DNA from: an uncultured Verrucomicrobiota bacterium
Lineage (GTDB): Bacteria; Auribacterota; JABMQX01
Reading direction: 5' to 3'
NCBI GenBank assembly: GCA_964640185.1
Contig: CAZXGF010000010.1
Coordinates: 162-64,161 of the forward strand
Length of the DNA stretch: 64,000 nt
Part shown: piece by piece, positions 2,531 to 62,594 of the stretch
How positions within the stretch are numbered: position 1 is the first letter of the stretch
Layout of the letters: each line of letters opens with the position of its first letter
The notes under the pieces: model-generated
What the model was told of the DNA's origin: nothing
Database searches by the model: none
Seen by the model: only the letters and a program-made list of their open reading frames with translations
Program-made: the position numbers and the translations under genes

Positions 2531-3009
2531 GAGCGAGTCGCCCGGAGCTTCCCTGTGGCCGCAGTCCCAGCAAACGCAGTGCCCGGATGGCACGCCTCCG
2601 AGAATGCGCGCCCGCAATCGCTGCTCAAGCGTCCGCGCTGCGCATCAATGATATTCGAGCCGTGACGAAGTGTGTTGTTTTGCTGTGCCCCGGTTCGCTG
2701 GAGACAAAGACGACCGTCCGGGCCCGCCGGACGTCTGCTCTCCTTAAACACGCCGCCTTTGCCGGTTTCGCCGCCCACGAAACGGGAAAGTTTCGGAACC
2801 GCTGTCTGGGGTAATGCCTCAGTTACCGGCGGCTGAGGTTCGGACCTCATAGGACGCAGAGTAGCCCTTGTGCCGGTGGCATCCTGCCCCCGCCCCGCGT
2901 TCCGCGGGGGACGCCCTCGGGGCAGCGTTACATAGACCGCAACACTGAGCTGCACCTGGCAATCAAGCGCCAGACGCCCAGGGAACGACAGCCCCGCCAT
3001 GGCGGGGTG

Positions 3010-3117
3010 TCCTTCTCACCTTATTCTCTGCGCCTTTGCGCCTTTGCGTTAATCTGCTGTTCCCTTCTTGCCTCCTCCGGCTCGGCCGGCTATCCGCCCG
3101 AGACTGAGGGATTACTA
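3010..3117 (+). repeat. ~80-nt conserved module M1 (same family as 35433-35546), preceded by 16-bp palindrome CCCCGCCATGGCGGGG (2990-3005)
   Basis: Direct alignment with M2; lies just upstream of the sigma70-like promoter at 3135. Confidence 0.8.
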
Positions 3118-3134
3118 TCTGGAAGAAGAAACCC

Positions 3135-3162
3135 TTGACCCGCTAATAGGTTGCGATATAAT
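3135..3162 (+). promoter_or_regulatory. near-consensus sigma70 promoter (TTGACC-16nt-TATAAT)
   Basis: TTGACC at 3135-3140, 16-nt spacer, TATAAT at 3157-3162; ~130 nt upstream of the 3290 ORF. Confidence 0.5.
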
Positions 3163-3289
3163 AAGTTCCGTGGTGCTCGTTTTTACTATTCTTGTGCGCT
3201 CGAGGTTAAAGCGCCGGGCATAGATGTAGGGCTTTTTCCCGTGGAGCAACAAGCGAGTTTGCGGTGAGGAATCTTAGCCTTGAGCTGGA

Positions 3290-6200
3290 ATGAGAAACCT
3301 CGCGGCAGCGACTGCCGTCCTTCGCAGAAGCAAACTTAGAACTGTTCTCCTACCCAAGCCTGTGAACGTGTACGCGTCATTTCGGAAAAGCGTGGCTATG
3401 CTCCCATTTCGGATTTCGGATTTCGGATTTCGGATTTGGCAGTCGGGACGCCGGATTGCCCGCAGGGCAGCCCGCAATCCGCAATCCGCAATCCACAATA
3501 CCAGTTCGAAACACCTTTCATGCCTTTCTCTCCTTGCCTTTGTGATGGTTTTGACATCTTCTCTGTGCGCGGGGGAGAAGAAGGAGAAGCACTCGCTCCC
3601 CCGTCTGATTTTTACGCAGATACCAGCGGGAACGGATTTCGGACTTCGGACCGGCGACACGACACTGCGCGCCCCACAATCAGCCTCCCTCAATCCGCAA
3701 CCGATATCGAAGCTCGCGAACCCGCAATCCGCAATCCGCAATCCGCAATTGCAATCGGCACTCCCCGATCCACGACTAATGCCGGTGGCTGCGAATCCGC
3801 AATCCGCAATCCGCAATCCGCAATCTCCAATTGCAATCGGCACTCCCCGATCCACGACTAATGCCGGTGGCCGCGAATCCGCAATCCGCAATCCGCAATC
3901 CGCAATTGCCGCCGGCGCCCCGTTTCTCCCTCCTCTCCGAAATATACCCGGAAGCCGCGTCGTTTCCCTTGACTTTTCAAAGGGAGGGAAGACGCTCAAC
4001 GTTCTCACGCCGGAATTTGCTTCGGCGTGCTCACCGGTCGTTTCTTTCGACGGCAAGCGAGTTGTCTTCGTGGGGAAGAAAGGCGCCGACGATCCCTGGA
4101 ACGTTTGGGAGATGAGCATCAGCGGCGACGAAAAGCGGCGTATCCTGGAAACGCCGTGGGATTGCGTGACGCCCACGTATTTACCGAGCATTTACACCCT
4201 CGACAATCTCAACCCGCGAGACCAGGTCGTTTTCGCAGGGGCGGCGAGCGGCGAGGTGAACGAGTACGGCACGGGTCCGGCATGGTCTTTTTATACCTGC
4301 GAATTGAGCGGAAAAAACCTTCGGCGAATCACCTTCAACCTGAGCGCAGATTTCGACCCAGCGGTTCTTCCCGACGGGAGGATTGTGTTCAGTAGCTGGC
4401 AGCGGTTCGGAACCCGATATTACCCCACCGGGCTGTTTTCGCTTTTGACGGTGATGACTGACGGCACGGACCTCTTTCCGTTTTATGGAAACCACGAGCT
4501 GCCGATAATCAAATGCAAGCCCAGCCCCGGGCTGGGCGAGGGTGGCTGGGTTTATTTCGTGGAATCGCGCCCCGGGGAGGACCCGCTCGGCGGCGGGTCC
4601 ATTGCAGCGGTCAATCTCCGACGCAACTTCAAGACGTACACGCCGATTGCGAGCGACCGGCGAGGCATTTTCTATTCACCTTTCCCTCTTCACGGGGGAA
4701 ATCTCCTCGTCTCCTACAGAAAAAGAAGGCCCGGCGCGACGTATGGTCTGTACGAACTCTCGCCGCAGAGCGGGAGAATAGTCAAAAAGCTTTTCGACGA
4801 GCCCCGCTGGCACGATGTGGAAGCCCACACTGCCCTCCCCCGACCCAGACCCAAGGGGCGGTCGAGCGTCGTGAATTACGAGGTCCAGACCGCGGACATA
4901 TTCTGCCTTGACTGCTACTTGTCGGACTGGCCGGGAATGGAAAAGGTCGCTGCGGGCTCGCTCCGGCGGTTGCGGATTATTGAAGGCATTCCTCTGCGAG
5001 ATGACACGCCGATTGCGCATCGCGGATTGCGGATTGCGAAATCTGGAATACCGAGTGGGAAATCCGAAATCCGAAATCCGAAATCCGAGGTCCAAAATCG
5101 CAGGTCCGCAGTCGGAGGTCCGCAGTCGGAGGTCCGCAATCCGAAATCCGAAATCCGAAATGCGAAACGCGGCGAGGGTAGCGCGCTCTCCGGCACGGCG
5201 GCGAAAAAGTACTCCGCGACTCCCTTCGGTCCGAGGCGAATTCTGGGAGACATTCCACTGCCGAGCGACGGATCGTTCTACATCAAAGTGCCGTCGGAAA
5301 CTCCCATTGCGTTCCAGGTTCTCGACAAAAACGACATGGCGGTTCTCACGCACCAGAATTGGATGTGGGGCATGCCAAAAGAGAACCGTGGCTGCATCGG
5401 CTGCCACGAAGACCGAGAACGCACGCCCCCCAACCGGTTGGCGGAGGCGCTGAAGAAACCGGCGCCGAACCTGAACGTCCCCCCGGAAAAACGCCGGACA
5501 GTTGACTTCCAGCACGACATCGCGCCGCTGATCAAGACCCGCTGCCTCCAATGTCACACTCGGGAGCATCCGCGACTGGATCTAACTGACATCGCGAAGG
5601 CAGGGGTGAGCAGGGATTACCACGGGCGATTCCCGAGGGCTTACGAGGTTCTCCTTTCTCCGAGGGACCGAGGGGCGAAAGAATTAGCCGGACGTTACAT
5701 AAAGCCCGGCAGCGCCCGGGAAAGCCCGCTGATATGGCGCCTTTTTGGATTTAGCATTTCGGATTGCGGATTGCGGACTTCCGATTCGGCACTGCGCGCT
5801 CCGCAATCGGCGCTCCCCAATCCACAACCGCTGCCGGGACTCGCAATCCGCATTCCACAACCGCCGTCAGGACTCGCAATCCGCATTCCACAACCGGCGT
5901 CAGGGCTCGCAAATCCGCATTCCGCAATCCGCAATCCGCAATCCGCAATGGATGCCGGGGCCGCTGAACTCATGCCCCCGAAGATGCCTCTGAGCGACTC
6001 GGAGCGGAAGCTTTTTGTGGAGTGGATTGACCTCGGCGCGCAGTGGAGCAATCGCCCCTCGCCCGAAGATGTAGCATCGGATTTCAGACTCCGGATTTCG
6101 GATTTCAGACTGCCGACTTCGGACTTGGCAGTGCGCCCTCCGCAATGGGCACTCCCGAATCCACAACCGCTCCCGGGACTTGCAATCCGCATTCCACAAC

Positions 6201-6346
6201 CGCCGTCAGGGCTCGCAAATCCGCATTCCGCATTCCGCAATCCGCAATTTACAACTGATGCCGAGGTCGGCGAATCCGCAATCCGCAATCCGCATTCCGC
6301 AATCAAGGAGCCGGTTTCTGCCAGAGCCGCTGAGAAGGAAAAGTGA
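3290..6346 (+). CDS. TolB/PD40-like beta-propeller protein with two CxxCH heme motifs, interrupted in-frame by heptanucleotide-repeat-encoded low-complexity tracts (NPQSAIR/RISDFGF). N-terminus uncertain
   Basis: Propeller segment (VVSFDGKRVVFVGKK...PDGRIVFSSWQRFG), CIGCHED and CLQCHT, and the C-terminal LFVEWIDLGAQW block are collinear with paralog 29355-31988. Stop-free heptamer arrays are inserted at domain junctions. Stop at 6346 abuts the next gene with an AAGGAAAAG RBS. Confidence 0.55.
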   Translation: MRNLAAATAVLRRSKLRTVLLPKPVNVYASFRKSVAMLPFRISDFGFRIWQSGRRIARRAARNPQSAIHNTSSKHLSCLSLLAFVMVLTSSLCAGEKKEKHSLPRLIFTQIPAGTDFGLRTGDTTLRAPQSASLNPQPISKLANPQSAIRNPQLQSALPDPRLMPVAANPQSAIRNPQSPIAIGTPRSTTNAGGRESAIRNPQSAIAAGAPFLPPLRNIPGSRVVSLDFSKGGKTLNVLTPEFASACSPVVSFDGKRVVFVGKKGADDPWNVWEMSISGDEKRRILETPWDCVTPTYLPSIYTLDNLNPRDQVVFAGAASGEVNEYGTGPAWSFYTCELSGKNLRRITFNLSADFDPAVLPDGRIVFSSWQRFGTRYYPTGLFSLLTVMTDGTDLFPFYGNHELPIIKCKPSPGLGEGGWVYFVESRPGEDPLGGGSIAAVNLRRNFKTYTPIASDRRGIFYSPFPLHGGNLLVSYRKRRPGATYGLYELSPQSGRIVKKLFDEPRWHDVEAHTALPRPRPKGRSSVVNYEVQTADIFCLDCYLSDWPGMEKVAAGSLRRLRIIEGIPLRDDTPIAHRGLRIAKSGIPSGKSEIRNPKSEVQNRRSAVGGPQSEVRNPKSEIRNAKRGEGSALSGTAAKKYSATPFGPRRILGDIPLPSDGSFYIKVPSETPIAFQVLDKNDMAVLTHQNWMWGMPKENRGCIGCHEDRERTPPNRLAEALKKPAPNLNVPPEKRRTVDFQHDIAPLIKTRCLQCHTREHPRLDLTDIAKAGVSRDYHGRFPRAYEVLLSPRDRGAKELAGRYIKPGSARESPLIWRLFGFSISDCGLRTSDSALRAPQSALPNPQPLPGLAIRIPQPPSGLAIRIPQPASGLANPHSAIRNPQSAMDAGAAELMPPKMPLSDSERKLFVEWIDLGAQWSNRPSPEDVASDFRLRISDFRLPTSDLAVRPPQWALPNPQPLPGLAIRIPQPPSGLANPHSAFRNPQFTTDAEVGESAIRNPHSAIKEPVSARAAEKEK
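3407..3487. repeat. inverted heptamer arrays: (TTTCGGA)x3 at 3407-3430 and (GCAATCC)x3 at 3467-3487, 36-nt spacer (imperfect long hairpin)
   Basis: Direct reading of the sequence; unit GGATTTC versus reverse-complement unit GGATTGC gives 6/7 pairing. Confidence 0.85.
3717..3906. repeat. 75-bp tandem repeat x2.5, each unit = (CGCAATC)x3-4 + caattgcaatcggcactccccgatccacgactaatgccggtggc
   Basis: Units 3717-3791 and 3792-3866 near-identical, third unit partial; encodes repeated ANPQSAIRNPQSPIAIGTPRSTTNAGG. Confidence 0.85.
5023..5167. repeat. heptamer arrays (CGGATTG)x2, (GAAATCC)x4, (CGAAATC)x3 plus 14-mer (GGTCCGCAGTCGGA)x2
   Basis: Direct reading; stop-free in all six frames. Confidence 0.85.
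5746..5949. repeat. heptamer-rich tract with 33-bp tandem unit (ggactcgcaatccgcattccacaaccgccgtca) x2.5; ~190-bp segment duplicated at 6077-6303
   Basis: 5837-5869 and 5870-5902 near-identical; tract aligns with 6085-6270 (protein GLAIRIPQPPSGLA... repeated). Confidence 0.8.
6077..6303. repeat. second copy of the ~190-bp heptamer-rich segment (paralogous to 5746-5949)
   Basis: Collinear motifs: tccgcaatgggcactcccgaatccacaaccgctcccgggacttgcaatccgcattccacaaccgccgtcagggctcgcaaatccgcattccg. Confidence 0.8.
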
Positions 6347-6347
6347 T

Positions 6348-8078
6348 ATGCGATGGTTCCCCTCCCCCTCCGCGCCTTTGCGTCTCCCGCTCTCAGCCGC
6401 TTTGCGTGTTTGCGCCTTTGCGAGAGGTCTCCCCGGTGTGGTTTCTCACGCCAAGACGCCAAGACGCCAAGCGTTTCTCCTGCTCGCGATTTGCTGGCCG
6501 TTCGTGCTGGAAGGGGCGGAAAGCCTTCCTCAATATACCAACGTAACAGAGAAAGCGGGAATCGAGTTCGTCCACTGTTTCGGCGACGACAAACTGGATA
6601 CTATTGTTGAGACGACCGGCGCCGGCTGTGCCTTCTTCGACTACGACAACGACGGATACCTTGACGCATATTTTGTGAACGCCTGTTACAACAGAGTCGT
6701 CAATCATCCCAGCGGGAGGCGTTTTGCCGGAAAGCTCAAAAACGCTCTCTACCGCAACAACGGCGACGGCACTTTCACCGATGTGTCCCGGGAGTCCGGC
6801 GTTGACGACGGAGGCTTCGGCATGGGCGCCTATGCGGCTGATTACGACAACGACGGGCACACTGACCTTTTCGTGAGCAACTACGGCCCAGATGTCCTCT
6901 ACCACAACAACGGCGACGGCACCTTCACCGACGTGACCAAGAAAGCTGGCGTCAATAGCGACCTGTGGGGTATCGGGGCGACCTGGCTCGATTACGACAA
7001 CGACGGCTTCGTGGACCTTTACGTGGGCAACTACCTGACCTACGACCCCGACTATCGTTACTTCTACGCCGCCGAAAACTTCCCCGGTCCCGCCTCCTAC
7101 AAGGGGCAGCCGGACGTGCTCTATCGCAACAGGGGCGACGGCGCCTTTGAGGACGTAACCCGTAAAGCCGGCGTTTACAACCCGCAGGGCCGCGCTATGG
7201 GAATAACTTCCGGAGACTTCGATGACGACGGAGACATGGACATCTTCGTCAGTAACGACGACATGGAGAACTACTTGTACGCTAACAACGGGGACGGGAC
7301 CTTCCGCGACATCGCTCTTCTTTCCGGCACCGCCTTCGGCGCCAGCGGCGATATGACCTCCGCCATGGGGCCGGAGTTCGGCGATATTGACCGCGACGGG
7401 CTGATGGACCTGACCGTTCCGGATTTAATCTATGGCTGCATCTATCGCAACGTCGGAAATTCGATGTTCGAGGAGAAAAGCAACCTCATGGGGCTGGCTC
7501 CCGTCGTTGGCCAGTATGAGAGCTGGGCAGGCAACCTTTTCGATTACGATAACGACGGATACCTCGATTTCTTTGTCAGCAACGGCAACCCCCACCGGCT
7601 CGAGGAACAGGAGGATGTCCTCCTCCGAAACGACCGCGGCAAGAGGTTCGTTGACGTGTCCTCGATTTCGGGCGACTATTTCGCTGAGAAGTACGTGGGC
7701 CGCGGGGCGGCTGTCGGCGACTACGACAACGACGGCGATTTGGACATTCTCATTGTCAATCTGAACGGCCCCGGCCTCCTCGTCCGTAACGACGGTGCAA
7801 ATCGCAATCACTGGCTCACCATCCGCACCGTCGGGACAAAGAGCAACCGGTGCGGAATAGGCGCACGGTTTCGCCTCACGGCGGGCGATATGGTACAATT
7901 AGGGGAAGTCAAATCGGGTTCATCATATCTTTCCACGAGCGATTTGCGGGTGCACTTTGGCCTCGGACAGGAGACCGAAGCCTCCAAAATCGAAATCCGT
8001 TGGCCGAGCGGTCGGGTGCAAGTTCTGACGCGAGTGAAAGCAGACCAAATCCTGACCGTCGAGGAACCCGGGAAATAA
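6348..8078 (+). CDS. CRTAC1-family secreted protein: FG-GAP/VCBS repeats + C-terminal ASPIC/UnbV domain
   Basis: Repeated FDYDNDGYLDAYF / YAADYDNDGHTDLFVSN / LDYDNDGFVDLYVGN Ca-binding FG-GAP blocks; C-terminal NRCGIGARFRLTAGD...IEIRWPSGRVQVL. ATG 6348 sits 1 nt after the upstream stop with AAGGAAAAG RBS; long signal-like N-region (RRQAFLLLAICWPFVLEGAES). Confidence 0.75.
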   Translation: MRWFPSPSAPLRLPLSAALRVCAFARGLPGVVSHAKTPRRQAFLLLAICWPFVLEGAESLPQYTNVTEKAGIEFVHCFGDDKLDTIVETTGAGCAFFDYDNDGYLDAYFVNACYNRVVNHPSGRRFAGKLKNALYRNNGDGTFTDVSRESGVDDGGFGMGAYAADYDNDGHTDLFVSNYGPDVLYHNNGDGTFTDVTKKAGVNSDLWGIGATWLDYDNDGFVDLYVGNYLTYDPDYRYFYAAENFPGPASYKGQPDVLYRNRGDGAFEDVTRKAGVYNPQGRAMGITSGDFDDDGDMDIFVSNDDMENYLYANNGDGTFRDIALLSGTAFGASGDMTSAMGPEFGDIDRDGLMDLTVPDLIYGCIYRNVGNSMFEEKSNLMGLAPVVGQYESWAGNLFDYDNDGYLDFFVSNGNPHRLEEQEDVLLRNDRGKRFVDVSSISGDYFAEKYVGRGAAVGDYDNDGDLDILIVNLNGPGLLVRNDGANRNHWLTIRTVGTKSNRCGIGARFRLTAGDMVQLGEVKSGSSYLSTSDLRVHFGLGQETEASKIEIRWPSGRVQVLTRVKADQILTVEEPGK

Positions 8079-16095: not shown

Positions 16096-16223
16096 CTACG
16101 CCCCTCCGTCTGCCAGACTATTCATTATCTGGGTTCCGTATAGCAGCCTTCTTCTGGCAGATGTACCGCATAATCGCCTACCTCGTCGCGTGACGCTCAT
16201 CATCTAACTATCGCATTCCGAGT

Positions 16224-16490
16224 GGGTGTGGCCGCGTCGCCGTGGCGTGTCCTCACGGCTCGTTTTGAACCTCTCCCGTCGCACGTTGACGCCGTGGATC
16301 TGTGCCCTCTGTCCCTCTATCATAGAAAGGAAAGGGCCACCGCCTCCTTTTCGCCCGCCCTCGGCGGGGGCCGCAGTCAGCCACCGGCTTTAGTCGGTGG
16401 TATGGATACGAGATTCTTCTCGTGGGAGCCGGCTTCAGCCCCGCCGAGGCGGGGCTTCTCGACCACAGGATTCATGCGAATTTCGCCACG
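16224..16490 (+). repeat. dispersed ~260-nt structured intergenic element, copy R1
   Basis: ~85% identical to 22263-22516 and to the reverse complement of 42845-43212. Conserved hairpin CCACCGGCTTTAGTCGGTGG; second hairpin has a compensatory extended stem (GCCCCGCC/GGCGGGGC). Confidence 0.8.
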
Positions 16491-16506
16491 CAGATACAGC
16501 CGCGCC

Positions 16507-17067
16507 CTATTCGCTGAGCTTGACGGCCGTCCCGTAAGCTAAAAGTTCAGACGCACTTGCCACAACACTCGTGGTCATATAGCGAACATTGATTATCGCG
16601 TCCGCCCCCATCTTTCCAGCCTGGGCGACCATCCTATTAGTAGCTGCTGCCCGAGCCCTTCGCATCATCTCTGTGTATTCAGTCAATTCGCCGCCGAGGA
16701 TCAACCGGACTATGGCGGATAGGTCTTTGCCAAGCCAGATAGCAAATACCGTCTGGCCCTGGACGAGACCGAGAATCTCCGTGATCTCTCGGCCAGGTAT
16801 TTCTGCCGAATTCATCAGCAAAACCGTGCGGTCGAACTCAGTGGGCAGCGGCCCCTCTCCTGATGCCTTCTTTTTCCTTTGTTCGAGAGCCACTGTCAGC
16901 AGAACCACAAGGATACCCCCCAGAAGGCAGAAAATTGCCGTCCGGAGCCACCAGGGCACAGGCGCCGGATCATCGGCAACGACCACGTGCCACGGTATCC
17001 CAACAAATACTGCCGTGAACAGCCCGACCACGAACGCCAGCGACCCAATCTGTCGAATCGTTTTCAT
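16507..17067 (-). CDS. YbjQ/UPF0145 (DUF74) family protein with N-terminal TM helices
   Basis: ITEILGLVQG...GADAIINVRYMTT...ELLAYGTAVKL core; RBS GGAGGAACT 5 nt before ATG. Confidence 0.7.
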   Translation of the reverse strand: MKTIRQIGSLAFVVGLFTAVFVGIPWHVVVADDPAPVPWWLRTAIFCLLGGILVVLLTVALEQRKKKASGEGPLPTEFDRTVLLMNSAEIPGREITEILGLVQGQTVFAIWLGKDLSAIVRLILGGELTEYTEMMRRARAAATNRMVAQAGKMGADAIINVRYMTTSVVASASELLAYGTAVKLSE

Positions 17068-17114
17068 AGTTCCTCCTTAGACCAGTAGAATCCGAAAAAT
17101 CTCAGCTAACCAGC
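17027..17114 (-). repeat. ybjQ 5' module copy A (RBS + first codons + upstream CAGCTAAC box), part of intact gene
   Basis: ~90% identical over ~80 bp to 18870-18949; diverged homolog at 20129-20290. Confidence 0.8.
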
Positions 17115-18672: not shown

Positions 18673-18869
18673 GAGATACCTCCTGTTGCGCCTGACGCTC
18701 CCAAAGATTGGCTCAGGGCCGCCTCGCACGCGGCGTGCAAGTGCAGCCGCTGCTTCCGTAGCATTGGCTCTTAGTCACAGGTCCAAGTGTACTCTTATGG
18801 TTTCGTCAAGGGACCCTGCCAGCCATTTCTCCGTCTTGGAAGGTTTCCCTAATAACCCGAGCACGGACC

Positions 18870-18949
18870 CCAGCGAGCCAATCTGTCGAATCGTTTTCAT
18901 AGTTCCTCCTTAGACCAGTAGAATCGGAAAGCCTCAGCTAACGGCGTGC
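18870..18949 (-). repeat. ybjQ 5' module copy B (hairpin, CAGCTAAC box, RBS, first 10 codons MKTIRQIGSL then diverges to a stop)
   Basis: Sequence identity with 17027-17114; upstream imperfect hairpin GAGCGGCGCGG..CCGCGTCCGGCTC at 18929-18966. Confidence 0.75.
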
Positions 18950-20128: not shown

Positions 20129-20242
20129 TCAGGCCACGGCCGGATCATCGGCAACCATCACGTGCCACGGGATCCCGGCAAATACTGCTGTGAAGAGCCC
20201 CAACACGAACGCCACCGAGCCAATTTGTCAAAGTATTTTCAT
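20129..20242 (-). pseudogene. ybjQ-like N-terminal gene fragment (copy C of the 5' module) with in-frame TGA at codon 5
   Basis: Translates MKIL*QIGSVAFVLGLFTAVFAGIPWHVMVADDP, versus MKTIRQIGSLAFVVGLFTAVFVGIPWHVVVADDP in the intact gene at 16507-17067. Confidence 0.7.
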
Positions 20243-20304
20243 AGCGCCTGCTTAGGCAACTAAAATCCAAAATGTCAGCTAACGACATAGCTCAGCGGCG
20301 CGCC

Positions 20305-21974: not shown

Positions 21975-22262
21975 CTGAACACTCGCTTTCCCTGCACAGA
22001 TCTACAAAGAGTCTATCTGTGTACAAACGCCCCCACGCTTGATTGACTGGATGGGCCCATATTGCTGCACTCTTGACGCCATTACGGCCAACACGTGGCA
22101 TCCCGCCTTTGGCGGGACCCGTGAACCGTCATGAGCAAGATGCCCATGCCACTGAGGGAAAAATGCTATTCCAGCTACTGATGATCATCCTGCCCCTTCT
22201 GAGTCTAAGAACCATGCTCCCACACAGCTCTCCGAGCTGTCAAGCACTGTCTGGCAAATGGG

Positions 22263-22516
22263 TGTGGCCGCGTCTCCGTGGCATCCTCCGACGCCTGGTT
22301 TTGAACGTGTCCCGCCTCACGTTGACGCGGTGGATATGTCCAGCCTTTCGCTCTGTCGCAGAACGGAGAACGCCAGGGTTTCCTTTTCGCGTGCCCTCAG
22401 CGGGCGCCGGACTTAGCCACCGGCTTTAGTCGGTGGTATCGGATACGGGTTTTTTCTCGTGAGAGCCGGCTTCGGCCGGGCTTCTCGACCAGAGGATTCA
22501 TCCGAATTTCGCCACG
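22263..22516 (+). repeat. dispersed ~260-nt structured intergenic element, copy R2
   Basis: Aligns end-to-end with R1; hairpin GCCGG-C-UUCG-G-CCGGC present here. Confidence 0.8.
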
Positions 22517-22836
22517 GGAATACGACCACAACCCCCTTGAATGCAAGTGGCGGCCGCACGTTTGGAGATAAGCACATTCGTGACCGTTCACGGCACAGTC
22601 ACGAGGAAAGTGTCGCGCGTCCAGGGTGAGGCGGCGAGGACCGAGTCCTTCTCATCTTTCTCTCTGCGCCCCTGCGCCTTTGCCTTACTCCCCTTTTCCC
22701 TCTAAAACCCTTCAAGAGCGAGAAAGACCGCCGCACCGCCCTCTCCATCTACCGCAAAGCCCGCCGAATCTACGCCGACATCGAAAAACGCGCCCTCGCC
22801 AGCGGCAAACAGCCGGATTCGAAAACCCGCGTTCTA

Positions 22837-29354: not shown

Positions 29355-31988
29355 TTACTCTTGTTTGTCATTCCGACTTTGTGGCCTTTCCGCCATTATG
29401 GATTCGCGGTCGGCGACCTCGCTATGTTGGCTTTGCTTTGCGATAAGCTTCTCGATATTGTTTCGCTCGATTTCCTCCATGCGCTTGCGTTTCTGCGTGA
29501 AGTGGTTGTACTTGCGAACATCGTCGGGCGACCATGCGTTGGCTTCTGTATAGTCGCCGCAATACGGAACTAACAGGTCTATCCAGCAAGCGAGCTTGTC
29601 GAATTCCTCTCGGGTCATTTTTACACCCTCATGCCCTGTTTCGAGCAGTGTGATGAGCAGGCTCCTGGCGGCTCCCGCGTAGTACGGCGGAAGCGCAGGC
29701 GGCGCCGACTGGGCACTGATCCAGTTCACGAGCTCGCTCGACTGGCCTCGCCGCGTCAGCGCCAGATAGGAATCGCTCCACTTTCGCCCTGCTACAGTGT
29801 CCTGCATTTGCTTGCCCAAAAGACTGAAGGAGGTCTCGCTGCCACGGCCCTGTCGCGGGTCTTTGGGAGTGCCGGACTGAGCCCCGCCATTGTGGCAGCG
29901 GATGCAGTGCCGGTCAAGAATCGGCTGGATTTCCCCGATAAAACTAAATCCCCTCGGGGGTCCGTAAAAGGGCTCGAGCTGCCTCGGCCCCGCTGCCATT
30001 GCGAGGGTCGCTTTTGTGACGAGTGGCGTGGAGTTCTTGCTTTCGTGGCAGCCAACGCAGGAGAACACCTCCCCCGGCTGGAGGGTGGACCAGCTCCGCA
30101 TGGTCTGGACAGCGTGCCGCTTTTCATCGAGGGCCTGAAAGTAAACAGGTGTGCGCGCCGGCACGGTGAAGCAGGCTGAGCCGTCCTCGTACACTTGGGC
30201 GTCGCCCAGCACAATCTTAATGTCCCAGCTCCCGTTGCCAATCGCGATGGGGGTGCTAATGAGGGCACTCCCGGCGGGGCCGCGATTTCGGTTTTCCCCA
30301 ATGCCCGCCGCACGGTATTCGAGCGCCACCACGCGAAGTCGCTTGACAGTTCCGCGAGGAACGCCTCGCAGGCTCGGCCCGGCGTAAATGTCCTGGACAT
30401 AGTAGGCGCCTGTCTTCTTGCGGTAATCCACGACGCTCGGACGCACGTGCGGCCTCTTGCGCGGCGAGAGCGGCACGGGCTGGTTGCAGGAGATGCGCGG
30501 GTCAGATACCAAAAGCTCTCGCCGGCCGTCAATGGTCATGAAATAGATGGCGTAGGGCCGCACATACCTTTTGCTCCCGCTGCCGTAAGGGTCGTAGGTC
30601 ACAAGGAAGCACGTCTCACTCAGCGGGTAGGGATATTGAAACTGGTCGCCGTCCTGGCCGTACTGGTCAACGCGAACGGCCCGGGTCTCGCGAACCGGGG
30701 CGACCAACTGCACGCCGGCGGCTTCTTGGCGGCCCCGCCGGATGTCTATGATGGCCAGCTTCCCCCGCTGGTGAGTGTGGTGCCCGGACAAAACCGCGAC
30801 GATCTCACTTGAGGCGGGGATGCCCCTGGCGTGCATGATGGTGGTGGGAAACCAGGAGTTGTTCCCATAACACTCGGTTTGACCCGTTCCGTCGGGGTTC
30901 ATCCGGAACAGGGGTTGGGTGTAGATTTGACCCCGATCGCTGTATTCCCAGCGAGTATAGATGACCTGACCATCATCCCGCACGGACGGATAATTGGTGT
31001 GGACCTGGTCGAAGGTCAACCGGCGGAGATAGCTTCCGTCCTTGTCGCAAGTGTAAAGGTTACTGACCTCGGTCCACCAGCAGTCCACCGTTTGCACACA
31101 GCGGGTTGAGCTAAACACGATGTCGCCATTGGGTAGGTACGCTGGCTCGTAATCTGCGAAGCCCAGGCCGAAGGTGAGCTGGCGGACAGTCCCGCTCGCC
31201 ACGTCCATCTCGTAAAGATGGTAGTCGTCCTTGCGGTCAGATTTCTTCCACGCGAAGAGGATACGTTTGGCATCGTACGAGACAGCGGGGTCGCGGATGA
31301 CGCCATTCGGGTCGTGGATGAGGGTCTGCACATCGCCGTAGTTGCCGTTCATCTTCAGAAGGCAGAGGCTGGCGCCCGGTATGAAATGCCGCTCGCTCTG
31401 GGCGTCAGACTGGCCCTCGGTATAGGCATAATGTGATCCGCCCAGATTGTAATGTTTCGTGAAAACGATCTTCGCGCAGTGCTCGAGCAGAGGTTTGAGG
31501 CGCATCCCTCGCCGTCGTTCGCAGGCTTTCACGTAAAGGTCCAGCCAGCGGTGGTCATCCGGCGCGGACCCGCCGGCGCAAAGCTCCTCGAGTTCCCCCC
31601 GGAAATCCCCGCCGCCCGGGCCAATTTCGTCCAAAACCCGGGCGACCATCTTCTTCTCGAGCTCGGTGTCGCTGGCATTGCCAAACCAGTTGTGGAAGTC
31701 TTTGCCCACGTCCTGAAGTGCCCAGTCACATCGAATTGGAAAATCGGTCTCAACCTGCGACCAAAGCTTCGCTTGCCGCTGGCGTTTGTCCTTCTCTGAA
31801 ACCTCCAGCTTCTCCAACGCTTCGCGTGAGGCAAGCATTGTCTCGCTCCAGGTATCCCGCTTGATATAGCATCGTGGCTTTTCACTCCGTTGCGCCCGCC
31901 CACCTGTAGCGGCGCTCTCGACGCTGAGAAAAGAGCTGAAGAAGAAATAAACCAGTCCAGCCCCACAAGCGGCGATTGTTACTCTCAT
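29355..31988 (-). CDS. TolB/PD40-like beta-propeller protein with CxxCH motifs (repeat-free paralog of 3290-6346)
   Basis: CVGCHES and CIRCHNG; propeller (PNGDIVFSSTRC, DGQVIYTRWEYSD); C-terminal FDKLACWIDLLVPYCGDY block; signal peptide. Confidence 0.75.
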   Translation of the reverse strand: MRVTIAACGAGLVYFFFSSFLSVESAATGGRAQRSEKPRCYIKRDTWSETMLASREALEKLEVSEKDKRQRQAKLWSQVETDFPIRCDWALQDVGKDFHNWFGNASDTELEKKMVARVLDEIGPGGGDFRGELEELCAGGSAPDDHRWLDLYVKACERRRGMRLKPLLEHCAKIVFTKHYNLGGSHYAYTEGQSDAQSERHFIPGASLCLLKMNGNYGDVQTLIHDPNGVIRDPAVSYDAKRILFAWKKSDRKDDYHLYEMDVASGTVRQLTFGLGFADYEPAYLPNGDIVFSSTRCVQTVDCWWTEVSNLYTCDKDGSYLRRLTFDQVHTNYPSVRDDGQVIYTRWEYSDRGQIYTQPLFRMNPDGTGQTECYGNNSWFPTTIMHARGIPASSEIVAVLSGHHTHQRGKLAIIDIRRGRQEAAGVQLVAPVRETRAVRVDQYGQDGDQFQYPYPLSETCFLVTYDPYGSGSKRYVRPYAIYFMTIDGRRELLVSDPRISCNQPVPLSPRKRPHVRPSVVDYRKKTGAYYVQDIYAGPSLRGVPRGTVKRLRVVALEYRAAGIGENRNRGPAGSALISTPIAIGNGSWDIKIVLGDAQVYEDGSACFTVPARTPVYFQALDEKRHAVQTMRSWSTLQPGEVFSCVGCHESKNSTPLVTKATLAMAAGPRQLEPFYGPPRGFSFIGEIQPILDRHCIRCHNGGAQSGTPKDPRQGRGSETSFSLLGKQMQDTVAGRKWSDSYLALTRRGQSSELVNWISAQSAPPALPPYYAGAARSLLITLLETGHEGVKMTREEFDKLACWIDLLVPYCGDYTEANAWSPDDVRKYNHFTQKRKRMEEIERNNIEKLIAKQSQHSEVADRESIMAERPQSRNDKQE

Positions 31989-35144: not shown

Positions 35145-35432
35145 AGTGGCCTCTTTTTCTATCGTGCTGTCAAGAGCCGGGAAAGGCAGGAAAACCGTTT
35201 CCCGCGTGCGAGGGCTATATTGGCTATTTTCGCCTGGAGGGAGGGCAAAGTCAAGCGCTTCCCGGAAGAAGGGTGCGGCTGTGTTTCGGTGGGAAGGAAA
35301 GGGGGGAGAAACCTTAACGCAGAGACGCAGAGAGGGGCTGAATGGCAAAAGCCGGACCACTCCTTTGTGGCGCGGGCGTCTCGCCCGTGAAGAATCATGG
35401 GCAAGATGCCCATGCCACGGGACAGGCGAGGA

Positions 35433-35546
35433 CGGACTCCTTCTCATTCTTCTTCTCTCTGCGACTCTGCGCCTTTGCGTTAATCTGCTGTTCCCTTCTT
35501 GCCTCCTCCAGCTCGGCCAGCTATCCGCCCGAGACTGAAGGGTTAC
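35433..35546 (+). repeat. ~80-nt conserved module M2 (GCGCCTTTGCGTTAATCTGCTGTTCCCTTCTTGCCTCCTCC...CCGCCCGAGACTGA)
   Basis: Differs from 3033-3117 by three transitions over ~80 nt; preceded by hairpin CATGGGCAAGATGCCCATG at 35395-35413. Confidence 0.8.
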
Positions 35547-37047: not shown

Positions 37048-37276
37048 GCTTCCATTTGTTCCCGATTCGGCTCGGAATTGTGAGTAGATTCTGAAATGCT
37101 CTGCGTCTTGGCGCCTTTGCGTTAAAAAGCAAGGGGGTGGCTTGACAGGATGAACAGCATTGAGAGCATGCACGCTACGCTGTTATGTTGTCCACACAAA
37201 CTGCGCCGCGCGAACGCGCGGAAGGAGGGCCAATGAGCAGGGCGGATAAACGCAGAGGCGCAGAGGGCATCCCAGG

Positions 37277-42568: not shown

Positions 42569-42844
42569 TGCGCGCTCCTTTCTTTCCGCTCAACCGGAAT
42601 TTCACGTTTTTGCGGGCAGCTTTTATACATGGAGGTTGTCGCAACATTCACCCGGCGAGGAACGATGAGCCGAGTCTCTCCCGAGCAGCCCACTCTACCC
42701 AAGAGTATGGTGCATTCGCTCTCGAAAGTCGAGCTATTTGATGAATCGGGAAGATCCTGCCTCCGGGACGGCGTTACTCTTGCCAAACCTACCTACTGGA
42801 ATGCAAACCGGCGCCGTCAACAGGTGCGGCTATATTTGCGAGGG

Positions 42845-43212
42845 GGAATTCGGATGAATCCTCCGGTCGAGAAGCCCGGCTAAAGCCGGCTCTCACGAGA
42901 ACAATCCCGAATCCGATACCACCGACTAAAGCCGGTGGCTAAGTACAACTGTTCGTAAATACGGCCACGTATTGTGGATTCAAAATCTGATATGTTTCAT
43001 GGCCTTTTGGTCATTGCAACATCCGAATACGTTACCGAGTTTATGAATCAGAACACTAAGCCCGGTGCCCGCTGGGGGCACGCGAAAAGGAAGCCGTGGC
43101 GTTTTCCGTTGTACGGTAAAGGGCCAAACTGAACGAATGCACAGCATCAACCTCGGGCAGGAGAGCTTCAAAACGAGGCGTCAGAGCATGCCAGCGACTG
43201 GCGGCCACACCC
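42845..43212 (-). repeat. dispersed ~260-nt structured element, copy R3 (reverse orientation), interrupted by a 112-bp insertion
   Basis: Reverse complement aligns with R1/R2 on both sides of the insertion at 42944-43055. Confidence 0.8.
42944..43055. mobile_element. 112-bp AT-richer insertion inside R3, flanked by 5-bp direct duplication CTAAG/CTTAG (MITE-like?)
   Basis: R2 has a single cttag at the homologous point; R3 has cttag-[112 bp]-cttag (42939-42943 and 43056-43060 on the plus strand). Confidence 0.55.
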
Positions 43213-50325: not shown

Positions 50326-50665
50326 CTCAGGGACTAACCACAGGAGAAGTTTGGTCCTGAGCACATCGGCGGCAACAGCAGGGGCGTGCAGTGAGCCTAT
50401 ACGCCCGTCCGGAAGATGACGCCCAGCAGCACCGCTTCCGGTTTAAAGCGCGCCCCGCTTCCGCCTCCCCTGGAGCGACTTACGCTCACAAGAATGCACC
50501 ATCTTGTGCGTAAAATGACCATATATGCTATAAATAAGCAAGGGCAAAGAATCGTAGCGCCCAGGCATCGCCACCGGCCCAAATTGCCGTTCCGGACGGC
50601 TTGATGGCCCCACTGAGGAAATCACCCGTGCCGGGCATTTAACCCACTTTTTTGGGGTCGAACAG

Positions 50666-53600
50666 GTGGAGCAGTTGAAATTCTTCGATGTCGGTCAAGA
50701 AGGAATTGGGGAGGTGCGGGAGGGCCCGCCGTCCTTGCCGAGTTCCCCAGATGAACTCGCCTATTGGTTCTCAGAGGCTGTTAAGGCTGAGATCGAGGAG
50801 TTGTCAAAGAAGGGGGGACAGCAATCTTATGAGCTGCTATCGGGGGAGTTAATCAAGACAATAGGTTCCAGCCAAGGGATTTTTTCATTTATACTCGCTG
50901 ATGGCACAAGGATTCCTGAGGATGCAACCGGGCAACTAAAGACGGAAAGTGCAGAATACACCGCCACTGTAATACGCCAGGAAGTTAACCGTATCCAAAT
51001 CCAGCTCGAAGCGAGTTCCCGACTTCCCGATGCCATTTCCAGGGCGATTCTTTTAATCGACGACACGGCTCTCCTTCGACGACTGGCGGATGTACTTGAC
51101 GCTAAGGCTGAGAACCCAACGGGAGTTCGACCTTTAGCGGTAAAAGTATTCCATCCCGTCCAGGCAGAAATTGGGACTGCACTTTTACCTGACATCCCAG
51201 CGTTGGTTGATAAGAATCCCCGGAACCGCCACGTGTGGGAAAAAGCGTGTGGCTCCTCCGTCACGTATATATGGGGACCGCCGGGTACCGGAAAAACGTT
51301 CTCAATCGCTCATCTTGTGGCCACCCTCATCGCATTGCATGAGAGAGTTCTTGTACTCAGCCATACGAATGCGGCCGTAGATCAGTCCCTATATGAGGCG
51401 GTAAAACGCGCGGGTTCAGAAGAGGAGCAAGATGGACCGCTCGCCGTACATCCCTTCCTTCAGGAGGGCAAGATACTTAGGATCGGGCCAACAACGAATC
51501 AGAAGATTCCCGACCCCGTTCGGTTGGACTGGGTGGTCGGCCAAAAGACCAGCGACATAAGCAAAGAGATCGTAGCTCTGGAGTCAAAAGCGAAACCACT
51601 TAGGGAGCAACTTGAATACGGCAATGCCATAATTGCAGAGTGGGACAAACTTTCGGATCTCGCGAACCGCTACGAATCAGCCGCTGAATCCGAAAGCTCC
51701 TGCAAAGACAAAACGAGAGCCGCCAGAGACCAGTTAAGAAACCACGGGAATATAGTTAGGCAGCGAGGCCTCGAACTTGAAGAGGCCAAAGGCGCCTGGC
51801 TTTTTCGGAAGAGAAAGATACAACGCGCTTCCAACGCCTTGCGTGTAGCGCATGAACTATTCACGCATTCCAAAGAAGCGTTGGAACTCCTTCACGCAAA
51901 GCAGACCGCGGCTCGCGACTTAGCTGTTACGCTTAAGTTAGCACTCGATAGACAACGGAGTGCATGTCAACAGCTGCTGCCCCGGGAAATCCTTGAGAAC
52001 GAGGTGGGAAATATAGCCAAGCGCTTGGAACCGCTGGAGACAAGGATTCAATTGCTCCAACAAGAACTCTCGGAACTTGAGCAGAAGCTGGTTGAAAAAG
52101 CCCGAGCGATTTTCTGCACCCTGACCAAGAACTATACCGACAGAACGTTGGAAGATCAGGCCTTTGACGCGGTAATCGTCGATGAGATTTCCATGGCACT
52201 TCCACCTTTGATTTTCCTGGCTGCGGCTCGGGCAATCAAACGCATTATTTTGGTCGGGGACTTTTGTCAACTTCCTCCAATTGTCCGGAGCGATACGCCT
52301 ATAAGCGATGAGAGACTTGGGACGGATGTCTTTCATCTGGCTGGTGTCGCACACGATTGTAAACCAGCAGAAGGATGCGTTGTTTTGGAAAGGTTGACCG
52401 AGCAGCGAAGAATGCTGCCCGAAATTGCCAACATTGCGCGGCATCTGGTTTACGACCAGACCGGTGTTAGACTCGAAGATCATCAGTCGCTGAAGAAGCG
52501 CCTGAAGCAAATTCACGAACACCCCACGCACGCTTGGCTTAGGTCTCTCCCGGGCAGCACGCTACTCATAGTCGATACTGCGGACTTGCATTGTTGGAGC
52601 GGCAAACAACCTGGTAGCCTCAGCCGTTTTAATTTCTATTCAGCAACAGTCGCTGTAGAGACTGCAGCCCTGGCCGTATCAGATCTCCCAAGGCCCGACC
52701 GTGTTAGTAGCCCCAGACCTATTGGCATCGTCACTCCTTTTGTGGCTCAACGAAGGCTCATTACGAAGATGCTGAGGAACTTAGACCTGGAAGATTGGGT
52801 TCAAGCAGGAACAGTTCATACGTTTCAGGGGGGGCAGGCCGATCTGATCATATTCGATTCCGTTTTGGATGAACCGTATTGGTCCGCCAGGCTCGTCACA
52901 CCTAGGTACCTCAAAGAGGTTAGACGCGAGCTCAACGTTGCAGTGACCCGGGCCAAGAACAAATTCATTCTCATAGGGTCCTCTGAATGGCTCAACGAGC
53001 GCGCCAGGGCAGCCAGTGGTCTTGGCCAACTTTGGATGTATCTCAGAAACCATGCCGATCTCGTGTCAGCCGCGGACTTGCCCATAGAGGATCTTCCGAA
53101 CCGGATATTTGGCTTCTCTGTCGATAGTACGAAGTGGTGCGTCCCAAGACAAAGCCATGGCTTGGCTTGGGAACCCCTTGACGAAAATACCTTTTTCCAT
53201 CGTTTCATAGCCGATATCAATTCAGCTTCTAAGAGCATCCTCGCATTCGCCCCTTATTTCGGCAGCTATCGCTGGCCCAGAGTCCAGCCAGCCTTCTATG
53301 CCGCCCTGAACAAAAAGCCCCGAGTCGAGATCACCATCGTCACTCCGCGGCTTAATGATGTTGACCCGGCAGCAAGAGCCTACACGAAAAAGGCCCTCCT
53401 GAATTTAAAAGAGCAGGGGGCGACCGTAGTTCCCGCAAGTGGTATGCATGGAAAGGACGTAATTATCGATGAGCGGATTCTTTATACCGGCAGCATGAAT
53501 TGGTCCAGCCATCGAGGCAGGCAGGAAACCGCGCATCGGTTCGAGGCGCCCGAATATGTGAAGTGCTACTTGGAATTGCTCCAGGCAAAGCATTTTCGTC

Positions 53601-53920
53601 AGGCAGTAATTCTTGAGGACGGCTCGCCGCGAGTCTGCCCCTTCTGCCACGAGCCCACCTGGGTCGTTAATCAAGGGAGGCAACACGGCGCTTGGGACTT
53701 CCAGGCGGTCAAAGTGGGCTGCAGCAATAAGGATAGGGCCGATTGTCCGGGGTATCTGAGGAATATCGATGAGCGCCCTCCATTTACCGCCATTCCAAGG
53801 TGCGAAATTGACGGTCGCACGAAATACAGGCGTGTACGGAGAGGCAGGGGCGAAAGATGGCAGTGCCCCAAGCACCCGAAACAATGTCCACTCATCAAGG
53901 TTGTCCCGGGAGATCCATGA
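50666..53920 (+). CDS. SF1 Upf1-like (AAA_11/AAA_12, COG1112) helicase fused to C-terminal phospholipase-D (single HKD) nuclease domain and Cys-rich Zn-ribbon tail; type II Mokosh (MkoC)-like defence candidate
   Basis: Walker A WGPPGTGKTF (~aa 204); motif II FDAVIVDEISM; motifs V/VI TVHTFQGGQADLIIFDSV / NVAVTRAKNKFILIG; HKD motif HGKDVIIDERILYTGSMNWS (~aa 927); CPFCH..C..CP cysteines at the C-terminus. GTG start assumed. Confidence 0.8.
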   Translation: MEQLKFFDVGQEGIGEVREGPPSLPSSPDELAYWFSEAVKAEIEELSKKGGQQSYELLSGELIKTIGSSQGIFSFILADGTRIPEDATGQLKTESAEYTATVIRQEVNRIQIQLEASSRLPDAISRAILLIDDTALLRRLADVLDAKAENPTGVRPLAVKVFHPVQAEIGTALLPDIPALVDKNPRNRHVWEKACGSSVTYIWGPPGTGKTFSIAHLVATLIALHERVLVLSHTNAAVDQSLYEAVKRAGSEEEQDGPLAVHPFLQEGKILRIGPTTNQKIPDPVRLDWVVGQKTSDISKEIVALESKAKPLREQLEYGNAIIAEWDKLSDLANRYESAAESESSCKDKTRAARDQLRNHGNIVRQRGLELEEAKGAWLFRKRKIQRASNALRVAHELFTHSKEALELLHAKQTAARDLAVTLKLALDRQRSACQQLLPREILENEVGNIAKRLEPLETRIQLLQQELSELEQKLVEKARAIFCTLTKNYTDRTLEDQAFDAVIVDEISMALPPLIFLAAARAIKRIILVGDFCQLPPIVRSDTPISDERLGTDVFHLAGVAHDCKPAEGCVVLERLTEQRRMLPEIANIARHLVYDQTGVRLEDHQSLKKRLKQIHEHPTHAWLRSLPGSTLLIVDTADLHCWSGKQPGSLSRFNFYSATVAVETAALAVSDLPRPDRVSSPRPIGIVTPFVAQRRLITKMLRNLDLEDWVQAGTVHTFQGGQADLIIFDSVLDEPYWSARLVTPRYLKEVRRELNVAVTRAKNKFILIGSSEWLNERARAASGLGQLWMYLRNHADLVSAADLPIEDLPNRIFGFSVDSTKWCVPRQSHGLAWEPLDENTFFHRFIADINSASKSILAFAPYFGSYRWPRVQPAFYAALNKKPRVEITIVTPRLNDVDPAARAYTKKALLNLKEQGATVVPASGMHGKDVIIDERILYTGSMNWSSHRGRQETAHRFEAPEYVKCYLELLQAKHFRQAVILEDGSPRVCPFCHEPTWVVNQGRQHGAWDFQAVKVGCSNKDRADCPGYLRNIDERPPFTAIPRCEIDGRTKYRRVRRGRGERWQCPKHPKQCPLIKVVPGDP

Positions 53921-53985
53921 CAATAATGCGGGCCACTCACCGCACAACCTCCTGTGGACCAAGGGGTTTCTTGGAGCAGCACCGC

Positions 53986-55847: not shown

Positions 55848-55850
55848 CGG

Positions 55851-56855: not shown

Positions 56856-57331
56856 AGTTTTTTCGTCAGCTTCTGGATCGGCCCCACACGCTTGACGCTT
56901 TCGATCACTTTCTGCAGAATCTGCGCGAACCTTCCACCTTCGGCGGCAGAGACCCATGAAAATTGAACTCGCTCCGCCTCAATTCCGACGTACTCCAGCC
57001 AGTTTTTGAGAAGGGCGAACTTTCTTCTGGCGACCAGGTTGCCGCTGATGTAATGGCAATCTCCCGGGTGGCATCCGGATACCAGGACGCCATCAATCCC
57101 TTGCCGCAGGGCGCTGAGAATGAAAAGTGGATTGATCCTGCCCGAACAGGGGACACGTATGACACGGACGTTCGGCGGATACTGGATTCGGCTCACTCCC
57201 GCCAGGTCGGCGCCCGCGTACGAGCACCAGTTGCACAGAAACGCCACAATCCGAGGTTGCCACTCCTCCGCAGGTGTTTCCTCTTGCTTTTTGGTTGTCT
57301 CTTGTTTCTCAGCAGTCTTCATTTTCGTCAC
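56852..57331 (-). CDS. mvhD: methyl-viologen-reducing hydrogenase delta subunit MvhD/FlxD
   Basis: IVAFLCNWCSYAGADLAG...VIRVPCSGRINPLFILSALRQGIDGVLVSGCHPGDCHY. Confidence 0.85.
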   Translation of the reverse strand: MTKMKTAEKQETTKKQEETPAEEWQPRIVAFLCNWCSYAGADLAGVSRIQYPPNVRVIRVPCSGRINPLFILSALRQGIDGVLVSGCHPGDCHYISGNLVARRKFALLKNWLEYVGIEAERVQFSWVSAAEGGRFAQILQKVIESVKRVGPIQKLTKKL

Positions 57332-61944: not shown

Positions 61945-61960
61945 GTTTTCACCTCTTGCT

Positions 61961-62551: not shown

Positions 62552-62594
62552 CGTTCCACATCTTTAACATTCTTCACCGCAGACGGGCAGAGCA

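Follow-up and report, generated by a model that had tools for sequence, protein, structure and literature searches.

Heptamer arrays within an HzsA-related gene are probably the arms of hairpin repeat elements

A stretch of 64,000 nt from an uncultured Verrucomicrobiota bacterium (GenBank assembly GCA_964640185.1, contig CAZXGF010000010.1, positions 162 to 64,161 of the forward strand; hereafter the window, in whose numbering all positions are given unless another contig is named) contains a gene related to that of the alpha subunit of hydrazine synthase, HzsA, which is densely studded with tandem arrays of 7-nt units. We consider it probable, though far from certain, that these arrays are the arms of hairpin repeat elements, which would have entered the gene, have been copied locally and be translated as linkers, without acting as an on/off switch. 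This notion is based on the absence of the repeats from all orthologs, on the preservation of the reading frame, on the pairing of the arms within each insert and on the occurrence of similar arrays, including in-frame ones, in many other genomes.

Repeats were located in the window with Tandem Repeats Finder and by scanning for exact runs of period 7. The open reading frame (ORF) of the gene is uninterrupted over 1018 codons, encoding 1018 aa, and, as had been noted in an earlier reading made from the letters alone (the sequence-only reading), it holds numerous heptamer arrays. At least 13 exact ones of 2-4.6 units each lie where that reading placed them, between 3406 and 6294 (exact period-7 runs at 3406-3437, 3472-3494, 3722-3749, 3794-3825, 3876-3906, 5022-5038, 5059-5088, 5138-5161, 5760-5777, 5921-5949, 6092-6106, 6220-6248 and 6273-6294), the longest exact array having 4.6 units. 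The units are of the AATCCGC and AAATCCG types in both orientations, with GCATTCC and CGGACTT as minor variants. Matches to the AATCCGC dimer with at most 2 mismatches number 40 in the window, all of them within 3409-6300, against a chance expectation of 0.74, and no shuffle of the window reached this number; outside the ORF the window contains no heptamer array of the AATCCGC type. Some of the arrays are part of higher-order repeats, for which the earlier description needs adjustment. The repeat described as 75 bp x2.5 at 3717-3906 has in fact a period of 82 nt and 2.3 copies, and since 82 equals 3x27+1, one such copy gained or lost shifts the frame. The 33-nt period of a second repeat holds, while its copy number and place, previously 2.5 copies at 5837-5949, do not (Table 1). 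A segmental duplication of about 190 bp is likewise real, but its bounds are now 5743-5968 and 6082-6274 with 84-85% identity (85% for 5743-5879 against 6082-6218, 84% for 5843-5968 against 6149-6274). The statement that the units are stop-free in six frames is correct, yet 50.4% of the heptamers that can be formed share this property, and stop-freeness was therefore rejected as a special property of these units. An explanation by G-quadruplexes was also rejected, the units being without G-runs. The GC content of the window, 56.7%, is moderate and not that of the high-GC lineage assumed earlier.

Evidence on the origin of the repeats comes from orthologs. All 12 of them (640-713 aa, 44-69% identity) lack the arrays and indeed the whole of five repeat blocks, which correspond approximately to aa 22-68, 112-201, 575-623, 834-889 and 932-1008 of the window protein, and comparison at the DNA level leaves only 4-15 variable residues at the five sites in the orthologs. 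In the alignment to the HzsA structure 5C2V, the blocks furthermore fall in the gaps between matching segments. The idea that the arrays are in-frame insertions at domain junctions is thus upheld, and on far stronger evidence than that of the distant paralog at 29355-31988 from which it was drawn, which is indeed without arrays but only 25% identical. All five blocks keep the frame, the chance probability of which is (1/3)^5 or ~0.4%, and this suggests that selection keeps the main allele open and that translation of the inserts is the simplest reading.

The host protein matches PF18582 (HZS_alpha) with 80.7 bits at a cut-off of 26.6 and chain A of PDB 5C2V, the hydrazine synthase alpha subunit, with E=5e-52 in six collinear segments, its middle domain (HZS_alpha), its TolB-like propeller and its pair of CxxCH haem motifs following one another as in that subunit. 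The two haem motifs, CIGCH and CLQCH, are invariant, and the window protein retains every invariant column of the ortholog alignment. No HzsB or HzsC partners were seen, however, and hydrazine synthase activity is therefore not claimed for the protein. An alternative start, ATG 3398, matches the ortholog N-termini better than the called start at 3290, and the hydrophobic segment KHLSCLSLLAFVMVLTSSLCAGE, a putative signal peptide, aligns with N-terminal hydrophobic segments of the orthologs, the Cys at its end falling in one column in five sequences (P0002-P0004, P0007 and the window protein). Since this segment resembles a signal peptide ending in Cys and since the haem motifs are of the c type, the host protein is probably exported. 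It is thus an HzsA-related c-type cytochrome and propeller heading a redox operon, and nothing indicates the surface antigen that the sequence-only reading had in mind.

The five inserts have a common layout, in which a G-rich arm (CGGATTT, CGGATTG or CGGACTT units) always comes first and the C-rich arms, one or several in number (GCAATCC or GAAATCC), come last. Insert 1, a simple hairpin element, begins 8 nt past ATG 3398 and separates this likely start codon from the putative signal peptide; its left arm, (ATTTCGG)x4.6 at 3406-3437, and its right arm, (CCGCAAT)x4 at 3472-3499, enclose a loop. Insert 2 consists of a short left arm, CGGATTTCGGACTTCGGAC (3633-3651), a core and three right arms of (GCAATCC)x4-4.6 at 3719-3749, 3792-3825 and 3874-3906, and insert 3 of a left arm, (GATTGCG)x4 at 5011-5042, followed by (GAAATCC)x4.3 at 5059-5088, by GGTCCGCAGTCGGA repeats and by a right arm, (AATCCGA)x3.4 at 5138-5161. 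In insert 4 the left arm (CGGATTG, 5754-5781) and the right arm, (AATCCGC)x5.4 at 5911-5951, are 87% complementary over 30 nt and flank a core containing the 33-nt repeat, and insert 5 has a degenerate left arm (TCGGATT/TCAGACT, 6077-6126), a core and right arms at 6217-6250 and 6271-6305. When the inserts are folded as RNA the arms pair together, with energies of -40 to -74 kcal/mol (-40.3 kcal/mol and z=-2.4 for insert 1, z=-1.2 for insert 3, a closing stem of ~24 bp and z=-2.3 for insert 4, and z=-1.4 for insert 5), and a search of 2900-6600 against Rfam gave nothing at E<=1. The cores of inserts 2, 4 and 5 are homologous, and this, together with the identity of 84-85% between inserts 4 and 5, argues that the blocks were copied from one another and are not independent products of slippage. 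Part of the shared core resembles the ortholog linker at site 2, which hints that host sequence was copied along with the arms.

Table 1. Features of the window discussed in the text
Feature	Position	Strand	Remark
Host gene, HzsA-related beta-propeller and c-type cytochrome	3290..6346	+	Pfam, PDB, motifs
Insert 1, simple hairpin element	3406..3501	+	absent from orthologs
Insert 2	3623..3908	+	absent from orthologs
Insert 3	5011..5167	+	49-aa block absent from orthologs
Insert 4	5754..5951	+	absent from orthologs
Insert 5, paralogous copy of insert 4	6077..6305	+	84-85% identity; absent from orthologs
82-nt tandem repeat x2.3	3722..3906	+	inside insert 2; Tandem Repeats Finder, 97% matches
33-nt tandem repeat x3.5	5814..5932	+	Tandem Repeats Finder; inside core of insert 4
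Signal-peptide-like hydrophobic segment, ends in Cys	3509..3577	+	downstream of insert 1
Upstream 8-nt array TGCGCCTT x2.5	3029..3048	.	
Sigma-70-like promoter TTGACC-16-TATAAT	3135..3162	+	11/12 consensus positions; consensus match only
Downstream FG-GAP/ASPIC gene	6348..8078	+	starts one base past host-gene stop
Distant paralog, 877 aa	29355..31988	-	25% identity, no array

Arrays of this kind are widespread. A 26-nt probe, (AATCCGC)3.7, finds at least 120 loci in at least 10 phyla (assigned by record titles) among species-representative genomes, and the locus counts, polarity, size and coding-frame figures that follow are those of the matches listed. About 47 of the loci are in Acidobacteriota, 24 in Planctomycetota, 16 in Verrucomicrobiota, 7 in Bacteroidota, 6 each in Chloroflexota and Proteobacteria, 5 in records labelled Heliomicrobium/Heliobacteriaceae, 4 in Gemmatimonadota and 4 together in Binatia, Armatimonadota, Nitrospirota and unclassified records. 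The matches include 1-Mb long-read contigs, and a peptide search found arrays in isolate genomes as well, for example those of Stagnimonas aquatica, Bordetella hinzii and Chitinophaga niastensis. The exact run length peaks at 31-34 nt at coding and non-coding sites alike, and the loops between paired arrays are mostly 10-20 nt long. Where arrays are at most 400 nt apart, 51 pairs have the G-rich arm first, 3 are reversed and 14 are direct, and since the duplex is the same in either polarity, its stability alone fails to explain the ratio of 51:3. Of the foreign arrays, 58% are located in a frame that runs without a stop for 60 codons or more to each side, compared with 72% of random control positions, and in sense orientation the polar NPQSAIR reading is favoured 43:15. 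In-frame copies confirmed by Pfam occur in UvrA (in two phyla), IleRS, TruB, UvrC and a Ser/Thr kinase, and, at one and the same site in two genera of Gemmataceae, in PurL, and several occupied sites are common to related species. The density can be considerable, with hairpin elements approximately every 3 kb in metagenome-assembled genomes of Pyrinomonadaceae (L010, L012 and L096), where several of the hairpin loops contain a start codon and occupied sites are common to two species. The run length modulo 3 shows no difference between coding and non-coding arrays, since the boundaries of the runs are not those of the insertions.

Control heptamers were compared in viral contigs (IMG/VR) only, where the AATCCGC probe matched 29 loci, four composition-matched controls 1, 4, 6 and 19, and AAATCCG 12; inverted pairs numbered 0 among the 62 control arrays and five among the AATCCGC arrays, all five with the G-rich arm first. 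In the ~81 kb of the same genome that were covered, the family is represented by the host gene and by one intergenic locus 7.3 kb upstream of it (contig L133, 5912-6106), which consists of two tandem hairpin elements and is called as a 77-aa gene without a Pfam hit. A protein search with an insert peptide returned mostly spurious ORFs of 40-120 aa made of arrays and no further hosts of the composite core. Many such (AATCCGC)n ORFs of 40-120 aa among the proteins P0129-P0242 bear the name 'major type 1 subunit fimbrin (pilin)' from the Joint Genome Institute (JGI), a name most likely given in error to the low-complexity NPQSAIR repeat. A full-text literature search for the repeat strings and peptides found no paper, and a keyword search found only other heptamer families.

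The reading that we favour starts from an element with a 5' arm of ~4.5 GCGGATT-type copies and a 3' arm of ~4.5 copies of the complement AATCCGC, with a short loop or core between them. A single element of this kind, or a few, would have entered variable linkers of the HzsA-related gene and would then have multiplied within it, probably by recombination or template switching between arrays, and this copying would have yielded the five blocks, the 82-nt and 33-nt higher-order repeats and the duplicated core of inserts 2, 4 and 5. Because the units are stop-free in every frame, the gene stays open after any copy whose net length is divisible by three, and selection would have spared only copies of that kind. 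The gene would still be functional and the ribosome would read through the inserts, which would thereby add low-complexity and probably disordered segments (of the NPQSAIR, RISDFGF and RIADCGL types) outside the conserved domains; we infer translation through the inserts, their neutrality and the mode of copying.

A number of observations must be held against this interpretation. That the inserts are translated is suggested by a single argument, that of the frame, and the z-scores of their RNA folds (-1.2 to -2.4) are modest. AATCCGC, with its 29 loci, is only moderately commoner in IMG/VR than one of the four controls, with 19. Array pairs 400-4000 nt apart are without polarity (13:11), and no autonomous element is therefore visible, and neither a consistent flanking target-site duplication nor a conserved loop was found among the copies compared. 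No transposase partner was found either, the whole genome not having been searched for one. It should also be mentioned that five inserts in one 3-kb gene, compared with one other locus in ~81 kb, are overclustered for a random coloniser, and that two frameshifted alleles, described below, suggest that selection may be relaxed in part of the population. A wider proposal is that the AATCCGC/GCGGATT hairpins constitute a previously undescribed, coding-compatible family of many phyla, marked by arms of ~4.5 heptamers, by the strict precedence of the G-rich arm and by the lack of stop codons in every frame, which would spread or arise by some sequence-specific mechanism and would routinely extend essential proteins. 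We put this forward tentatively and would lean slightly against it; if it holds, the host gene may be a case of extreme local amplification.

Among the alternatives, the hairpins may have been kept as functional nucleic-acid structures, which would regulate translation, mRNA decay, pausing at domain boundaries or DNA topology. Such a role would agree with the pairing of the arms in each insert, with a polarity for which duplex stability alone gives no account and with the start codons that are often contained in the hairpin loops of Pyrinomonadaceae and of other genomes, where occupied sites are conserved between species. These foreign loops and the position of insert 1 next to its own likely start codon leave room for a regulatory hairpin. 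The fold z-scores are however weak, many pairs have arms that are mismatched regularly every 7 nt, about half of the foreign arrays among the matches listed are unpaired, no Rfam family matches and the orthologs function without any such structure, and we therefore regard this explanation as unlikely.

The sequence-only reading had seen in the gene a classic contingency locus, in which slipped-strand changes in the number of heptamers or 82-nt copies would switch expression on and off within the population. The unit is indeed a non-triplet one inside an ORF, and calculation confirms that gain or loss of one unit shifts the frame and would truncate the product at any array. In insert 5 a loss would fuse the host to the downstream gene, since the frame of the latter is open backwards into that insert (6180-6346), and one heptamer lost there would give a fusion protein of 1593 aa. 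The unit numbers agree, however, between the window and all other assemblies that reach into the arrays; these are consensus assemblies of one population, in which minority variants would not show. Seven to eight contigs (7-8) encode the identical 1018-aa protein, and contigs from two JGI samples span the whole gene and those of a third JGI sample, one further JGI contig and two sequencing runs parts of it. Two alleles deviate. The protein of one JGI contig (P0001) is reproduced exactly by deleting one 82-nt unit, an allele thus reconstructed from protein, in which the signal peptide is out of frame with the mature protein; it could be a true OFF allele, in agreement with switching, or a short-read collapse of the 185-bp repeat. 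The other, in the assembly of JGI sample 3300031650 (L132), has a 1-nt deletion in a T5 run at 4288, in a unique part of the gene, which is thereby split into calls of 338 aa and 680 aa; the frameshift may be genuine or may have arisen in sequencing. The only short repeat with a unit number that differs between assemblies is the 8-nt array TGCGCCTT, 260 nt upstream of the gene, which has one unit fewer in three JGI contigs (3026-3033); one base substitution was also seen between the assemblies.

The variation of this upstream array and the breaks in short-read contigs at the gene's 3' end may both be cited in favour of a contingency locus. Hypermutable contingency tracts are, however, usually well above five units, and the present arrays have at most 4.6. 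Arrays of the same size are furthermore found in frame in housekeeping genes, namely those for UvrA, PurL, IleRS, TruB and UvrC, where switching would be harmful, the run length is tightly peaked where slippage would spread it, and a propeller and cytochrome of the HzsA-related class is atypical for phase variation. Short arrays that are invariant between samples are unlike a contingency locus, and the classification is not supported; that the gene is switched in this way appears to us quite unlikely. A glycosyltransferase fragment from a Pasteurellaceae isolate, [Pasteurella] aerogenes (P0140/P0135), ends in an (AATCCGC)n array, where the same heptamer could genuinely serve phase variation.

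It might also be supposed that the NPQSAIR-type segments are adaptive, having been selected as flexible spacers or interaction motifs. Their location at domain junctions, the bias across phyla towards the polar reading and a predicted local distance difference test (pLDDT) score below 50 over the inserts in an AlphaFold2 model (made from a 14-sequence alignment) are in agreement with this notion. The model is however poor overall, with a mean pLDDT of 43.8, and the argument for disorder of the inserts is weak for that reason. In addition, the left arms encode Cys/Phe-rich peptides, RIADCGL and RISDFGF, that would make poor linkers, the same DNA with the same arm size is found at non-coding sites, and the 12 orthologs manage with their 4-15 residues, all of which makes selection for a linker function distinctly improbable. 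The peptides APQSALPNPQPLPGLAIR, IPQPPSGLAIR and NPQSAIR are insert-spanning tryptic peptides predicted from the sequence. Finally, although the repeats break short-read assemblies at the locus and two frameshifted alleles exist, an assembly artefact or a decaying pseudogene is hardly credible, since the same sequence has been assembled independently many times, the family is present in 1-Mb long-read contigs and isolate genomes, and the main allele keeps five inserts in frame and every invariant residue.

The favoured reading, of hairpin elements carried in frame by a working gene, has its closest parallel in the Rickettsia palindromic elements (RPEs), which occupy in-frame positions in numerous genes (Ogata et al. 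2000, reviewed in PMC10969869). According to the review's account, these too are small palindromic repeats that occur in frame in unrelated coding genes, with the hosts apparently functional, as well as in non-coding DNA, and they are translated as extra peptide segments, as we propose for the inserts of the window gene. The same account gives RPEs a length of ~150 bp, a conserved family sequence and a distribution in Rickettsia only, whereas in the present family only the arms of ~4.5 tandem heptamers are conserved, the loops vary and many phyla are involved; in the window gene the element has, moreover, multiplied locally. Measured against RPEs and MITEs (miniature transposable elements with inverted repeats) in general, the family thus has inverted, hairpin-capable ends and in-frame insertions in conserved genes but neither a conserved full-length sequence nor a target duplication.

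Families of heptanucleotide repeats have been described before, namely the cyanobacterial STRR sequences, TAACTGA in Beggiatoaceae, cyanobacteria and Bacteroidetes (PMC4679880) and GGGAATC in Xanthomonas (PMC4692102). Like these, the present family forms short tandem 7-nt arrays at many loci, numerous per genome in some cases, with a patchy distribution across distant lineages; some of the published arrays also form inverted pairs, GGGAATC prefers about four units, and for the published families and ours alike the function and the mode of spread are unknown. The published families are however mostly intergenic and under-represented in coding regions, and TAACTGA contains stop codons, whereas the AATCCGC/GCGGATT family is distinguished by its unit and its strict pair polarity, is not predominantly intergenic and has coding arrays nearly as frequent as random positions would give. 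Nor can G-quadruplex formation apply to the present heptamers.

Simple sequence repeat contingency loci, as known from Haemophilus, Neisseria and Campylobacter (PMC8262952), have a non-triplet repeat in frame, where a one-unit change shifts the frame, and they share with the window gene a non-triplet unit within the reading frame. Their tracts are single, long, polymorphic among close relatives and located in genes for surface structures, host interaction or restriction-modification, whereas the periplasmic redox gene of the window holds a minimum of 13 short arrays that form inverted arms and do not vary between assemblies. In tract length, tract polymorphism and gene class the window gene accordingly departs from this model. 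REP and REPIN elements and bacterial MITEs are short dispersed hairpin repeats (PMC3733652, PMC3184786) and as such resemble the present family, being hairpins with inverted arms that are dispersed, sometimes every few kb, and sometimes intragenic. The 20-40-nt palindrome with a GTAG or CGTC tag that defines REP and REPIN elements is however lacking, no such tag being present at the ends of the arms; no target-site duplication was found, the arms have a 7-nt periodicity and no RAYT or transposase partner of the REP/REPIN type was found, again with the whole genome not searched.

The operon headed by the host gene is tightly packed and comprises, besides the FG-GAP/ASPIC protein, a multihaem propeller protein and periplasmic binding proteins. 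Further away, at 50333-64000 in the right part of the window, there are genes for a NiFe hydrogenase, for heterodisulfide-reductase-like proteins and for FlpD, and no heptamer arrays are found there. A second class of arrays has 8-nt units (TGCGCCTT, CTTTGCGC, ACGCCAAG, ACGCAGAG and related ones) and is found at 3029-3048, 6400-6422, 6448-6471, 35317-35333, 35457-35479 and 37251-37266, the arrays at 6400 and 6448 being inside the 5' end of the FG-GAP gene, where they are read as ...APLRLPLSAALRVCAFA...HAKTPRRQA.... Just upstream of the host gene (3025-3115) there is furthermore a dispersed repeat of ~90-125 nt, with a direct copy 32 kb away (35456-35546, 93% identical) and an inverted one, 98% identical, 1.9 kb to the left of the window (L133, 9442-9565). 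Other families of dispersed repeats of 110-180 nt, direct and inverted and with identities of 72-90%, are located at 16223-16508, 22259-22523 and 42823-43212 and at 16964-17097, 18797-18930 and 20139-20272, and the genome seems rich in small repeat elements.

If the interpretation given here is correct, a small repeat that is open in six frames can colonise coding genes in many phyla of soil and sediment bacteria, and it would lengthen proteins by tens of residues without destroying them, thereby providing a source of new linker sequence. In practice it would also cause contigs to break at the repeats, frames to seem shifted and ORFs consisting of nothing but arrays to be misnamed, for example as 'fimbrin'. 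Polarity as strict as this, together with the fixed arm size, suggests a specific mechanism, which should be traceable in the genomes that contain an element every few kb. The lesson of the locus itself is that non-triplet repeats within a gene do not on their own indicate phase variation.

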